64,000 nt of DNA from a bacterium (GTDB lineage Bacteria; Patescibacteriota; Microgenomatia; Woykebacterales; RBG-16-39-9b). The notes below the pieces were generated by a model. That model saw nothing but the letters and a program-made list of their open reading frames with translations. It did not search any database and had not been told where the DNA came from. The position numbers and the translations under genes are program-made. Positions 6,734 through 53,560 of this stretch are shown piece after piece. Within the stretch, counting starts at the first letter, position 1. Each line of letters opens with the position of its first letter. The stretch lies in contig JAUYID010000009.1 of the NCBI GenBank assembly GCA_030704665.1, forward strand, positions 256,832 to 320,831. The letters are read 5' to 3'.

Positions 6734-6790
6734 GGTCATCCTGAATGAAATGAAGGATCTGAGATTCTTCGCTCCCGCTCAGAATGACAT
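6734..6790. repeat. MITE-like palindromic element copy (GTCATCCTGA ... TCAGAATGACA termini)
   Basis: TGGTCATCCTGAATGAAATGAAGGATCTGAGATTCTTCGCTCCCGCTCAGAATGACAT. Shares GAAGGATCT..GAGATTCTTCG core with the copy at 26105-26170. Lies in the rpmB 5' UTR. Confidence 0.55.
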
Positions 6791-6809
6791 TTTTAGTTTT
6801 CTAAATTTT

Positions 6810-7172
6810 ATGTATATTTGTGAACGTTGTGGAAAAGGTCTGCAGGTGGGGATGAATGTTTCCCACTCTCACCGCCGAACCAAAAAACGCAGTTTGCCGA
6901 ATCTTCACTTGACTAGCCTTTACATTGGAGGCAAGAGAGTGACCGCTCGCTACTGCACCAAATGTGTCCGCATCATGCGGGCTGCTTATCCATACACCCA
7001 GCCAACGGCTGATATGGTAGTTGTTAAAGATGTGAAGGAAAGTCCCAAAGCGAAAGTTCACGAACCCAAAAAAGAAGTAAAAGAAACCAAAAAGGGGGGC
7101 GAGCTGAAAGCCGAAGATATTGAAGATATTGTTGAAACTACCTCTGAGCCAGAAGCAGTCCCCGCGAGCTAA
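6810..7172 (+). CDS. rpmB: ribosomal protein L28 with Lys/Glu-rich C-terminal extension
   Basis: MYICERCGKG...VSHSHRRTKKRSLPNLH matches the L28 core. About 50 aa charged tail. Start taken at the internal Met of ORF 6702-7172. Confidence 0.7.
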   Translation: MYICERCGKGLQVGMNVSHSHRRTKKRSLPNLHLTSLYIGGKRVTARYCTKCVRIMRAAYPYTQPTADMVVVKDVKESPKAKVHEPKKEVKETKKGGELKAEDIEDIVETTSEPEAVPAS

Positions 7173-7236
7173 TTTGCAATTTCCCCAAACAAAAGTATAG
7201 AATCCCTCCAACTACAGCATAGAAGGAGAGTGTGTT

Positions 7237-7656
7237 ATGGATCAACAAGAGCTACAGGTAATGACCGTGGCCGTGGCCGTCAATGGGGAAAAGATGCGCA
7301 ATCTTCTCCTGCGGCAGAACGACCCACGCAATCCCAACTGGTTCTGGGGGTTGGGAAAGATCGGCAAGAACGAGGTCTGCGTCGTTGTTGGTGGGAGACC
7401 TGACGGCAAGAAGACAGCTGTCTCGTTCAGCTTTACTCAAGAGCGTGGCCATCGGATTGAGGGCCGCGACCTACCTGTCAGAGGGATCGGCGACTGGCAT
7501 GTGGCCAGTTGGAATGTTCGTACTCCGTCTCGAACCAGCTTTCCGGGAGAACCGTCACTGCTACGTCACAGCCTACGAGTGAGCCTGATCCGAGTCTCCA
7601 AGCCACACCTGCCCCGCGAGCGCAATGCTGAGAAGAGGGTGTCGAAGAAGAGGTAG
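7237..7656 (+). CDS. hypothetical protein (GC-rich islet)
   Basis: 139 aa. AAGGAG RBS 8 nt upstream of ATG. GC-rich by eye. Confidence 0.45.
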   Translation: MDQQELQVMTVAVAVNGEKMRNLLLRQNDPRNPNWFWGLGKIGKNEVCVVVGGRPDGKKTAVSFSFTQERGHRIEGRDLPVRGIGDWHVASWNVRTPSRTSFPGEPSLLRHSLRVSLIRVSKPHLPRERNAEKRVSKKR

Positions 7657-7726
7657 AGAAGAAACTCCAAACCACACAACCGAGGGTCGCGTCCCCCGAC
7701 CGACCCTCTCCCTAACCCAAGATCAA

Positions 7727-7843
7727 GCAAATAGATCGCTAAAGCGCTCTGCGTTTCCAAAAACTAAGTGTCAGACTATGCTTGAGCGCAGGATTCGCAG
7801 TAGCTAATCTTCTCTAGAAGATATTAGCTACGAGGATCCTATA
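7727..7843 (-). repeat. right copy of ~118-bp inverted repeat pair
   Basis: Partner of 5607-5725. Distal end forms a different 15-bp hairpin (GTAGCTAATCTTC tcta GAAGATATTAGCTAC) at the equivalent position. Confidence 0.7.
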
Positions 7844-7973
7844 GTGTTTGACTTTTAGCCTCCGGTATGCTATATTACGCCAGTTCTTTAAATACAATAT
7901 CCTTACTGGATTACCTGATTTGGTGGTTATAAATTTTTTGACTTTCAAGTTGGGTAATTCAGTTGAAATCCGT

Positions 7974-8603
7974 ATGAAGCGGAGGAAGGAACAGCTCATG
8001 AGAGGTCGAGTTATCTTCATCGGACTGGCCATGGTGGCCATCAGCGTTTTCGCCTTCGCCTGCGACGTCTACGGTGGATACGATGACGAGCAGACTCCGA
8101 CTCAGCAGGCAGCGATCGGCACGCTGGTTGCTCAGCAGACAGTGGCGCCGCTACCGACTCCGCGCCCGGTTGGCTACTGTGTGAAGGAGATCGCCAGTGG
8201 AGAGGTGGAACTTGGGGATCGGATGCGGATCACACCGGTCAAGGATTCGGATGGCAAGGATCAGGGTCTCAACCTGATCGCGAACTTTACGGTTCTGGGC
8301 ACCGACACGTTTCTCATCGCCAATGCCGCTCGGGGACCGCACTACCGGTTCCTGGTGAATCCGGCGTCAGTTGTGCCGGGGGATCAGTTGGTCAGCCCGA
8401 TAATCTTCGGTCCAGCCGTCGGTATGGTCGGACGTCTCATCGACGTTACCTGTGGGGAGGTCCCGATCTTGTACTTGGAGGTCTCGTTCTGGGATCTCTG
8501 TCACCAGGTTCCCGATGCGATTGTGGTCGAGGGTAAACCGCTCCTTGATGTGATCAAGACGGACTATCGTGTCGATCCCTGCAACATCGGCGGACCTGAG
8601 TAG
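7974..8603 (+). CDS. putative secreted lipoprotein, hypothetical (GC-rich islet)
   Basis: Internal Met of ORF 7848-8603. N-terminus MKRRKEQLMRGRVIFIGLAMVAISVFAFAC resembles a lipoprotein signal with lipobox Cys. Confidence 0.45.
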   Translation: MKRRKEQLMRGRVIFIGLAMVAISVFAFACDVYGGYDDEQTPTQQAAIGTLVAQQTVAPLPTPRPVGYCVKEIASGEVELGDRMRITPVKDSDGKDQGLNLIANFTVLGTDTFLIANAARGPHYRFLVNPASVVPGDQLVSPIIFGPAVGMVGRLIDVTCGEVPILYLEVSFWDLCHQVPDAIVVEGKPLLDVIKTDYRVDPCNIGGPE

Positions 8604-52860: not shown

Positions 52861-52865
52861 ATTTG

Positions 52866-52940
52866 TGTCATCCTGAATTTAATTCAGGATCTTCTGAAAA
52901 CGCCAGGTTAATTGGGTTCTGAAACAAGTTCAGAATGACA
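52866..52940. repeat. MITE-like palindromic element copy
   Basis: TGTCATCCTGAATTTAATTCAGGATC ... GTTCTGAAACAAGTTCAGAATGACA. Overlaps the first ATG of ORF 52935. Confidence 0.55.
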
Positions 52941-52955
52941 GAAGGAGCAATAAAA

Positions 52956-53414
52956 ATGGCTATGTTTAGTTTTTTCGGAAAAGGGTTTCGTGATCTCGAA
53001 ACCAAAATAGCAGAACTCATTACCAGCTTCGCCGGAAGTATGGCTTTTGTTTACATACATATTATTTGGTTTGGAGCCTGGATAATTTTCGCCAAGCAAA
53101 TTGGTGATACCTTTCCTTTTGGTTTGCTGACAATGATCGTCTCCCTTGAGGCAATTTTCCTTTCTACCTTGATCATGGTCAAACAAAACCGTCAGGCTGA
53201 GATTGATGCCCAAAGAGCTGAAGAAGAGGATGAAGAAAGAGAAGACATTGAAGAAGATATTGAGGATATTCAAGAGGATTTCGATGAGCTACAAAAAGAT
53301 CTTAGTGAAGTGCGTCGTCTCATTGAAAAAATTGAATCTCGAACTACTAGTTACGACCCTGTTTCCAAACCAGTGCCTTCTAGCATTCGAAACAAGAAAA
53401 AAGATTCCGCCTAA
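52956..53414 (+). CDS. DUF1003-like membrane protein with acidic coiled-coil tail
   Basis: AAGGAG RBS 8 nt before ATG at 52956. Two TM helices and an NRQ motif, then an E/D-rich tail. Confidence 0.5.
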   Translation: MAMFSFFGKGFRDLETKIAELITSFAGSMAFVYIHIIWFGAWIIFAKQIGDTFPFGLLTMIVSLEAIFLSTLIMVKQNRQAEIDAQRAEEEDEEREDIEEDIEDIQEDFDELQKDLSEVRRLIEKIESRTTSYDPVSKPVPSSIRNKKKDSA

Positions 53415-53446
53415 ACAAACGAGGTTAGTTAAACTTAAATCTTGAG

Positions 53447-53480
53447 TAGTACAAATTGTACGATCGTGAACTTTGTTCTA
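53447..53480 (+). repeat. copy 6 of 33-bp ACGATCGTG motif
   Basis: TAGTACAAATTGTACGATCGTGAACTTTGTTCTA, immediately followed by a MITE-like element. Confidence 0.55.
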
Positions 53481-53484
53481 TCTA

Positions 53485-53560
53485 AATGCCATCCTGAACA
53501 CTTCGCTCTCTCACTCTGAAAGTAGTGAAGAGTCTCGAGTTCAAACCCAGTGAGAGATTT
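53485..53560. repeat. MITE-like palindromic element copy
   Basis: AATGCCATCCTGAACACTTCGCTCTCTCACTCTGAAAGTAGTGAAGAGTCTCGAGTTCAAACCCAGTGAGAGA. Upstream of cysS. Confidence 0.5.

Follow-up and report, generated by a model that had tools for sequence, protein, structure and literature searches.

Here we examined seven small palindromic elements dispersed over a 64,000-nucleotide stretch of a Patescibacteria genome (Microgenomatia, Woykebacterales), i.e. positions 256,832 to 320,831 of contig JAUYID010000009.1, forward strand, hereafter called the window. The best named relatives of this genome are Candidatus Woykebacteria and other Microgenomates-group members of the candidate phyla radiation (CPR). 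A preliminary description had read the elements as a family resembling miniature inverted-repeat transposable elements (MITEs), with common terminal inverted repeats and internal modules. All seven copies were found at the coordinates it gave, five of them complete, with both termini present, and two reduced to decayed remnants (Table 1). The complete copies proved to be pairs of a short tagged hairpin, a unit that recurs in many phyla and that, in other genomes, brackets genes encoding small single-domain GIY-YIG proteins related in sequence to the single-stranded DNA (ssDNA) nuclease SsnA.

The sequence TGTCATCCTGA, searched with no more than one mismatch, gave nine matches in the 64 kb against a mean of 1.00 in shuffled sequences, and none of 100 shuffles reached nine. 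A covariance model, R1, was built from 60 half-sites (i.e. single hairpin units), all of other genomes and none from the window; at E<0.1 it detected ten half-sites in the window, every one within copies 1-4, 6 and 7. Shuffle enrichment and R1 matches together ruled out chance similarity as the origin of the copies and showed that the small palindromes dispersed over the window form a genuine non-coding family. The common internal modules were likewise present as listed in the preliminary description: GAAGGATCT at 6752, 24805 (minus strand) and 26126, AGATTCTTC at 6762 and 26139, GTGAAGAGTCTCGAGT at 24769 (element 2) and 53525 (element 7), and CTGAAACAAG at 33372 (element 5) and 52919 (element 6).

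On either strand, the five complete copies fold as RNA into long hairpins (z -2.3 to -5.0), among them element 1 (-18.4/-21.9 kcal/mol) and element 6 (z -4.99), and element 7 as a whole did not fold (z -1.07/-0.03). With DNA parameters, every half-site of the window adopted the shape of a tagged hairpin; the stem of the left half of element 2 was kept in this fold, and the two half-units of element 4 reached -5.2 and -7.6 kcal/mol. All five dimers are heterodimers, with C:G in one half and T:A or a different stem in the other. Element 1, for instance, has ATCCT/AGGAT as its left stem and ATTCT/AGAAT as its right stem and is therefore a heterodimer; elements 4 and 6 have continuous stems of 7-9 bp. 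Aligned in register, the short hairpin of element 5 and the left end of copy 6 share 92% identity (family D6/D18), and the element 5 remnant CTGAAACAAG, common to copy 6, marks a copy-6 type of spacer.

Table 1. Dispersed repeats of the window, with the half-sites scored by the R1 covariance model
Feature	Position	Composition and context	R1 half-sites (strand, bits)
Element 1	6734..6790	Complete; head-to-head dimer, tags outward; between divergent M50 peptidase and rpmB genes	6732-6762 (+) 36.8; 6760-6791 (-) 38.1
Element 2	24737..24832	Complete; dimer; left hairpin with stem ACTCT/AGAGT and a 20-nt GC-rich loop insertion, right hairpin canonical	24740-24781 (+) 15.2; 24803-24833 (-) 45.4, best of the window
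Element 3	26105..26170	Complete; dimer; fills the spacer of two tandem dcd paralogues	26104-26136 (+) 35.5; 26137-26170 (-) 23.7
Element 4	30211..30273	Complete; dimer; variant fully paired stems ATTCTCG/CGAGAAT and ATCCTCG/CGAGGAT; preceded by a terminator-like hairpin	30211-30242 (+) 17.9; 30245-30274 (-) 18.8
Element 5	33332..33385	Decayed; between tsf and frr; short hairpin TGTCATCCTGAATTTATTTCAGTATGAC made of both end motifs, plus a remnant	none detected
Element 6	52866..52940	Complete; dimer; fully paired stems ATCCTGAAT/ATTCAGGAT; upstream of the DUF1003 gene	52864-52894 (+) 23.4; 52912-52942 (-) 8.9, weak
Element 7	53485..~53598 (end at 53560 in the preliminary description)	Decayed; before cysS; orphan left end 53487-53497, hairpin with mutated tag CTCA 53507-53537, right-arm remnant GAGATTCTTC 53586-53596	53507-53537 (+) 21.9
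TAGTACAAAnnnnACGATCGTnnAnnTTTGTTCTA copies	4888-4915, 8981-9008, 11940-11966, 12513-12540, 24691-24718, 53450-53476	Second repeat family	

Half-sites of other genomes were retrieved with the pattern GTCATYCTGAGC-N3-8-GAAGRATC, for which the matches listed included at least 120 loci each in IMG/VR viral contigs and in a one-genome-per-species collection. The sequence logo and the covariation and arrangement counts were obtained from 240 pattern-selected loci among the matches listed; the logo was anchored on GTCATYCTGA only, and Y/R complementarity was not required in the search. Conservation begins abruptly at position -1 (T 77%, C 15%), the sequence upstream being unconserved and about 25 nt inward being conserved. 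The resulting consensus, T-GTCATYCTGAGCGnAGCGAAGRATC-tc, describes a hairpin of about 25 nt, (T/C)GTC-ATYCT-GA-GC-GNA-GC-GA-AGRAT-C, composed of a (T/C)GTC tag, a 5-bp stem ATYCT/AGRAT, a tandem G.A step, a GC-GNA-GC segment and an invariant C. The canonical unit thus has nine stem positions, two of which are G.A mismatches, a 3-nt loop and the tail C-T-C. The motif GCGNAGC is described as an extraordinarily stable DNA mini-hairpin (PMC13037366).

The structure of the unit was established by covariation. Within the same half-site, the combination of Y (position 5) and R (position 21) was TC/GA in 165 cases, TT/AA in 140, TG/CA in eight, TA/TA in one and CC/GG in one, with eight non-complementary cases. 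The inner pair covaries as well (GAGC...GCGA vs GAAC...GTGA; GC 50, AU 7), and GAGC-GNA-GCGA occurs in 241 of 355 canonical units. In the R1 alignment of 60 units, GTC, A7, C10-T11-G12 and T27-C28 are invariant, and pairs 7-27 and 8-26 are AU in 60/60 and UA in 58/60, respectively. Between the two halves of one element, the Y of the left half and that of the right half were alike in 51 cases and different in 45. Since the stem covaries within a half, with an overall count of 305 complementary vs 7 non-complementary cases, and not between halves, each ~25-nt hairpin, rather than the long palindrome, is the functional unit. The terminal inverted repeats of the preliminary description are therefore real and conserved, but they are the outer parts of two independent hairpins. 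Pairs of units were arranged with tags outward (LR, 96), with tags inward (RL, 17) or head to tail (73, i.e. 36 LL and 37 RR), and singlets occurred too.

The half-site was found in at least 15 phylum-level groups, as judged from record titles, and in IMG/VR viral contigs, so the termini are strongly conserved well beyond the window. Among the matches listed were Nitrospirota, Bacteroidota, Rhodothermales, Ignavibacteria, Chloroflexota, Acidobacteriota, Gemmatimonadota, Planctomycetota, Verrucomicrobiota, Omnitrophota, Nitrospinota, Deferribacterota (Mucispirillum), Campylobacterota, Desulfovibrio, "delta proteobacteria", Bdellovibrionales, Alpha- and Gammaproteobacteria, several Bacillota and the CPR groups Saccharibacteria, Gracilibacteria and Komeilibacteria. 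A consensus dimer compared by BLASTN with cultured phages and plasmids gave no phage match and a single plasmid match (Calothrix), because the dimer is too short a query for these databases. Some loci showed particular layouts. Six 75-nt dimers form a regular array with a period of ~87 nt in a viral or CPR contig (L105, 8546-8969; loci are designated by L numbers), and single units in the same orientation lie between four consecutive phage genes in L036 (440-4802). Open reading frames (ORFs) that read through units gain stereotyped N- or C-terminal peptides (VILSEAKNL, VILSGAKDL, ...DSSLRSE, ...SFRMT), as in L034 (4640-5041), L061 (367-1071) and L153 (6272-6601).

The copies of the window were absent from the syntenic DNA of the relatives sampled, which amounted to ~120 kb in total (CysS identity 70-73%, ThyA 79-83%). 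There, R1 found nothing but one 15-bit match, compared with at least ten half-sites in the 64-kb window. The orthologous spacers are empty: the dcd-dcd spacer measures 0-6 nt in three relatives (L326, L327 and L328) vs 88 nt in the window, where it is filled by element 3; the tsf-frr spacer, 10 nt in L327 vs 85 nt with element 5; and the DUF1003-cysS spacer, 45 nt in L323 vs 234 nt with element 7. As the elements are missing at these sites in every relative sampled, the insertions were, by parsimony, gained in the lineage of the window, and such a lineage-specific gain fits mobility. An all-against-all BLASTN of 320 loci for exact pairs of filled and empty sites gave one unclear case (L048 vs L092). 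Regarding the gene context, positions 25444-28756 encode two tandem dCTP-deaminase-like paralogues and, after them, a 521-aa protein in which thymidylate synthase is fused to DUF4346/MtrA-like domains, and CPR relatives keep the gene order dprA-topA-...-dcd-dcd-thyA-(tmk)-rpsB-tsf-frr.

The protein with which the hairpin is associated elsewhere belongs to a recently described group. SsnA is a 94-aa single-domain GIY-YIG nuclease whose target, NTS, is an extended form of the dRS3 repeat, CGTCATTCCCGCGMAVGCGGGAATCYRG (Chenal et al. 2025, PMC11893778). It binds NTS as ssDNA and cuts just upstream of it, the reverse strand, double-stranded DNA and RNA not being substrates; cutting depends on the three bases that precede the palindrome, and the C directly behind it is the base that matters most for binding (PMC11893778). 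Across bacteria, ssn genes, which encode nucleases of cd10448 type, are flanked by "Ssn-related motifs" (SRM), often on both sides, and 81% of SRM-rich genomes were found to have an Ssn; ssDNA-only binding and cleavage by the cognate Ssn was shown for Neisseria and Wolbachia pairs only (PMC11893778).

An Ssn-like profile applied at E<=1e-20 to the 240 loci gave three matches (L153, Gracilibacteria; L136, Cyclobacteriaceae; L238), all three bracketed by units, with Pfam GIY-YIG E-values of 4e-16, 4e-18 and 1e-8; a fourth, weaker match lies within a longer ORF in L235. A metagenome scan with the Ssn-like proteins yielded 80 homologues (49-65% identity). The 10-nt end motif occurred within 300 nt upstream in 61/78 of these and within 300 nt downstream in 61/77, the background elsewhere in the same loci being 0.17 per kb, and the canonical layout, a left unit upstream and a right unit downstream, was seen in 37/75. 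The upstream unit stands a median of 67 nt ahead of the Ssn-like gene, and at least a quarter of these genes use as their stop codon a TGA inside the downstream unit. Nine loci lacking the exact motif carried tagged hairpins with altered stems such as ATCCC/GGGAT, ATTCC/GGAAT and ATGCT/AGCAT, mostly compensated; the ATTCC/GGAAT variant, found beside some Ssn-like genes, is the NTS stem. The association of the hairpin with Ssn-like genes thus holds in other genomes, with L153, L136, L238, L330 and L331 as examples of hairpin-ssn-hairpin loci. On the Planktothrix and Spirosoma plasmids, annotated GIY-YIG genes are flanked by dimers of the same hairpin family as in the window, and the Ssn-like proteins of this subfamily include Planktothrix WP_083616022, Spirosoma WP_232563592 and the L153 protein.

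By sequence comparison, the Ssn-like protein is homologous to gonococcal SsnA: it shares 40% identity over 91% of its length with the SsnA homologue of N. gonorrhoeae, whose ORF is itself flanked by canonical NTS repeats CGTCATTCCCGCGCAGGCGGGAATC. NCBIfam contained no model for the Ssn-like proteins, and the nearest solved structures were UPF0213 GIY-YIG proteins (E 8e-6). Some records deserve a remark. The Ssn-like gene of the Planktothrix agardhii plasmid (L330, NZ_LR882964.1, 18450-19513), with several flanking dimers, is part of a defence island, its neighbours being a type IIL MmeI restriction-modification gene on one side and DISARM drmA on the other. Three ~190-nt repeats, each headed by a unit, lie upstream of ssn in L153 (5747-6661). 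The N. gonorrhoeae record (L329, NZ_CP119140.1), filed as a "plasmid" of 2.17 Mb with 12 annotated features, is evidently a chromosome.

The hairpin family and NTS/SRM follow the same grammar, i.e. an H-GTC tag, a palindrome that opens with AT and closes with AT, then C, which makes a directional unit: CGTC-ATTCCCGC-GMAV-GCGGGAAT-C for NTS vs TGTC-ATYCT-GAGCGNAGCGA-AGRAT-C for the family of the window. In both, units bracket a single-domain GIY-YIG gene of ~90-100 aa and are dispersed, mainly intergenic and often dimeric. They differ in the interior, where the window family has a tandem G.A step with a GCGNAGC mini-hairpin and NTS a continuous 8-bp stem, and in distribution, the window family being far wider (CPR, Chloroflexota, Acidobacteriota, Bacillota, viral contigs) than the mainly proteobacterial examples discussed for SRM.

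A second likeness is with the CGTC-tagged repetitive extragenic palindromes (REPs), which carry an unpaired CGTC/TGTC tag; their stem, 8-9 bp long, opens with the pairs A-T and T-A, the loop measures 4-5 nt, and the 3-nt tail has the consensus CCA (Di Nocera, De Gregorio and Rocco 2013, PMC3733652). Four families, CGTC-1 to CGTC-4, are spread over several phyla, CGTC-1 being the Neisseria dRS3; most units form tags-outward (head-to-head) dimers, often heterodimers, with spacers of 0-100 nt, and a dedicated transposase is lacking (PMC3733652). The window family agrees in its tag, first two pairs, short 3' tail, predominance of head-to-head dimers with 0-100-nt spacers, many of them heterodimers, lack of a linked transposase and presence in several phyla; its canonical unit differs, with 5 bp, G.A/G.A, 2 bp, a 3-nt loop and the tail C(TC). 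In the text and the supplements searched of PMC3733652, the consensus CTGAGCGNAGCGAAG does not appear. The peptides given for intragenic CGTC-2 units include VILD... and RHSELVSGS (PMC3733652). These back-translate to GTCATTCTG..., and copies 5 and 6, with their ATCCTGAAT/ATTCAGGAT stems, accordingly look CGTC-2-like; this comparison, made through the listed peptides, is offered as a lead only. The hairpin family may thus be described as a new and exceptionally widespread sequence family within a class of repeats that is already known.

Correia elements (Neisseria) and RUP and BOX elements (Streptococcus), to which the preliminary description had likened the copies, are also small, dispersed, intergenic, palindromic or modular, and can enter transcripts. 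They are derived from insertion sequences (IS) or modular, Correia elements having 26-nt inverted repeats and a TA duplication. The window family differs in having no duplication, ends that are autonomous hairpins, and a GIY-YIG nuclease as its associated gene. This analogy proved superficial only, the actual relatives being CGTC/TGTC-tagged REPs and Ssn-related motifs (PMC3733652, PMC11893778). Searches for other relatives gave little: Rfam at gathering thresholds found only four tRNAs in the window, relaxed Rfam searches of the copies and of canonical dimers returned only generic miRNA-hairpin noise, and full-text literature searches with DNA and peptide strings of the family retrieved primers only, or nothing. 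Integron attC sites carry an R''/R' core GTTRRRY; this identity was dropped, as the core is absent.

We consider it probable that the elements of the window are tags-outward dimers, and remnants of dimers, of a TGTC-tagged ssDNA hairpin of the CGTC-REP/SRM class, and that they are gene-less satellites of hairpin-ssn-hairpin units. By analogy with the Neisseria system, each unit would fold alone when the DNA becomes single-stranded (replication, uptake, phage or conjugative intermediates). A small Ssn-family GIY-YIG nuclease, cognate to the hairpin, would then bind the folded unit and cut a few nucleotides 5' of the tag, TGTCATCCTGAGCGAAGCGAAGGATCTC being the unit sequence expected as the ssDNA substrate of this protein. 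In a dimer, the left unit would be in substrate orientation on one strand and the right unit on the other. Autonomous loci would have an ssn gene between two units, and the gene-less dimers of the window would represent non-autonomous satellites that spread into short intergenic spacers of this Patescibacteria genome. We infer that the genome of the window encodes a cognate Ssn, which would cut the window sites and drive their spread.

Several observations weigh against this explanation. No ssn-like ORF was detected in the 64-kb window or in the relatives' loci with a profile of 80 sequences (E<=10). Divergence among the window copies is rather high, as would be expected of an old or decaying population more than of a recent burst. 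The last seven residues of the query used for ranking the homologues are element-encoded, which may inflate the count of downstream end motifs, not that of upstream ones. Canonical units are weak in nearest-neighbour DNA energy (-2.7 kcal/mol, z ~-0.6), because the model scores neither sheared G.A pairs nor GNA loops. Compensated palindromes can also come from template-switch repair without selection. Insertion boundaries are not readable to the nucleotide, ~20 extra nt accompanying copy 3, since the relatives are only 70-83% identical in protein. Finally, the published SRM pattern, HGTCWYN(0-2)YYVSBRHN(0-5)WNVSBRGN(0-2)RNCYNB, matches 0/802 half-sites (L001-L320), so that the family is placed with SRM for its grammar and gene association and not by virtue of the published definition; the sole match of the pattern in the window is the right half of element 4.

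Other explanations of the elements lead to different expectations. If they were classical MITEs, i.e. deletion derivatives of an IS with a DDE transposase, mobilised in trans through terminal inverted repeats, the inverted termini of 10-11 nt around a variable centre in five copies, the dispersal of the copies and their absence from the relatives' orthologous sites would all be accounted for. Target-site duplications are absent, however: none is visible at the five dimers of the window, and the flanks of 101 dimers gave 2-nt repeats in 6/101 and 3-nt repeats in 1/101, as by chance. No transposase recurs near the ~580 end motifs of the 240 loci, where the 1,707 ORFs no farther than 250 nt from an end motif formed recurrent clusters for phage structural proteins only, and the only gene recurrently bracketed is the GIY-YIG gene. 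Units often stand alone or in direct arrays, convergent pairs making up only about a third of the ends, and each end is self-complementary with internal covariation, the two ends not covarying together. The MITE reading of the preliminary description, for which neither duplications nor a neighbouring IS or transposase could be found and which is at odds with independent hairpins, is scarcely credible to us. Mobilisation of REP-type hairpins by a REP-associated tyrosine transposase (RAYT; IS200/IS605-like, HUH Y1) agrees with the general architecture, namely tagged hairpins, inverted doublets, no target duplication and an ssDNA logic. REPs, bacterial interspersed mosaic elements (BIMEs) and the REP doublets called REPINs (Nunvar 2010, PMC2817692; Bertels and Rainey 2011, PMC3116915) are likewise tagged hairpins found as singlets, inverted doublets and clusters, with the doublet as replicative unit and one domesticated or selfish enzyme gene flanked by repeats, and GCGNAGC-like motifs also occur in enterobacterial REP loops (PMC2817692). 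Their tag is GTAG (or GTGG) and their enzyme an HUH Y1 transposase, in contrast to the (T/C)GTC head and the repeatedly bracketed GIY-YIG nuclease of the present family; no Y1-like cluster was found among the neighbouring ORFs, and Di Nocera et al. likewise detected no gene for a tyrosine transposase with flanking CGTC repeats (PMC3733652). REPs are also largely species-specific, whereas the present hairpin is nearly identical across phyla. This origin we regard as very unlikely.

The elements might also act in RNA, as transcribed hairpins that stabilise transcripts, terminate them or occlude ribosome binding, their sequence being conserved by an RNA-binding factor. Stable RNA folds were indeed obtained for both strands of the dimers, a promoter-like site before rpmB is closely followed by copy 1, 7 nt separate the end of copy 3 from a start codon, and units of other genomes mildly favour the 3' side of genes (~160-170) over the 5' side (100), in agreement with Di Nocera et al. 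Yet terminator and promoter scans of the seven copies gave no intrinsic terminator and weak promoter-like matches only, and orientation relative to the flanking gene is unbiased (same strand 85-94, opposite 73-75). G-U-compatible changes are not in excess (4 T/G vs 3 C/A), no Rfam family matches, the orthologous genes of the relatives lack the elements, and the RNA form is not bound by Neisseria SsnA (PMC11893778). The placement in 5' untranslated regions given in the preliminary description is not specific, because nearly all window genes run in one direction and every spacer lies downstream of one gene as well as upstream of the next, and a role there in modulating expression received no support from these scans. 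The ATG that one copy was thought to donate (52935) is an artefact of ORF extension: DUF1003 orthologues start at the residue matching the ATG at 52962, downstream of element 6. A primary function in RNA thus seems unlikely; RNA-level effects may occur as by-products, and transcripts may be affected, but the evidence does not point to such effects as the reason for the presence of these sequences.

The satellite reading preferred here can be extended to a broader proposal, which we put forward tentatively and hold to be doubtful: the hairpin and the small GIY-YIG nuclease might together form a self-propagating, horizontally travelling mobile element, the GIY-YIG counterpart of REPIN/RAYT, with a 25-nt ssDNA recognition hairpin, centred on the highly stable GCGNAGC mini-hairpin, almost unchanged across at least 15 phylum-level groups, CPR and phages, and gene-less dimers as satellites actively colonising a streamlined 0.94-Mb Patescibacteria genome. 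Were this the case, the satellites could have a bearing on how imported DNA is handled, in an organism dependent on DNA uptake. Ssn nucleases were described only in 2025, with natural sites detailed for a few Proteobacteria (PMC11893778). The present family adds a candidate recognition hairpin that is well defined, widely conserved, clear in its covariation and missed by the published pattern, and that comes with a matching subfamily of Ssn-like genes; this pairing is a candidate source of new ssDNA-cutting specificities and makes the family a case for asking how GIY-YIG-linked hairpins spread. It also accounts for seven puzzling intergenic palindromes, which should not be taken for promoters, leaders or start codons. 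For annotation, ORFs that read through units are a likely source of spurious or mis-started predictions in databases, probably including thousands of "hypothetical proteins" (VILSEAKDL..., ...SLRSE).

Other repeats and features were observed in the window. Two ~165-nt inverted paralogous sequences (5560-5730, plus strand, and 7712-7880, minus strand), with 87% column identity, bracket a 2-kb segment containing the M50 peptidase gene, element 1, rpmB and a 139-aa ORF (7237-7656). Their inner long hairpin keeps pairing through six compensatory changes and matches no Rfam family; the pair may represent a structured RNA that was duplicated, or else the two arms of a segment able to invert. Between 50856 and 52218, ~1.36 kb contain no ORF of 90 aa or more (the longest being 80-85 aa) and no Rfam family above the gathering threshold. 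This region is flanked by a 146-aa ORF and by a 147-aa ORF (52219-52662) presumed from synteny to be YqeY, and relatives have uncalled gaps of 1-2 kb near the equivalent place, between YqeY and DUF1003 (L321, 6594-8730; L323, 8464-9517).

The second repeat family consists of a ~34-bp quasi-palindrome, TAGTACAAAnnnnACGATCGTnnAnnTTTGTTCTA, with six copies in the window; elements 2 and 7 each have one of them immediately on their 5' side. In the relatives' loci a single copy was seen (L325, 949-975), at the equivalent position between DUF1003 and cysS. The family may represent an operator or a promoter, or else a further mobile palindrome. Also repeated is a terminator-like hairpin carrying a T-run (GAAACGAC...GGTCGTTTTTCTTTG), found at 8921-8968, where it abuts a copy of this second family, and at 30159-30206, where it abuts element 4, the two copies being 81% identical.

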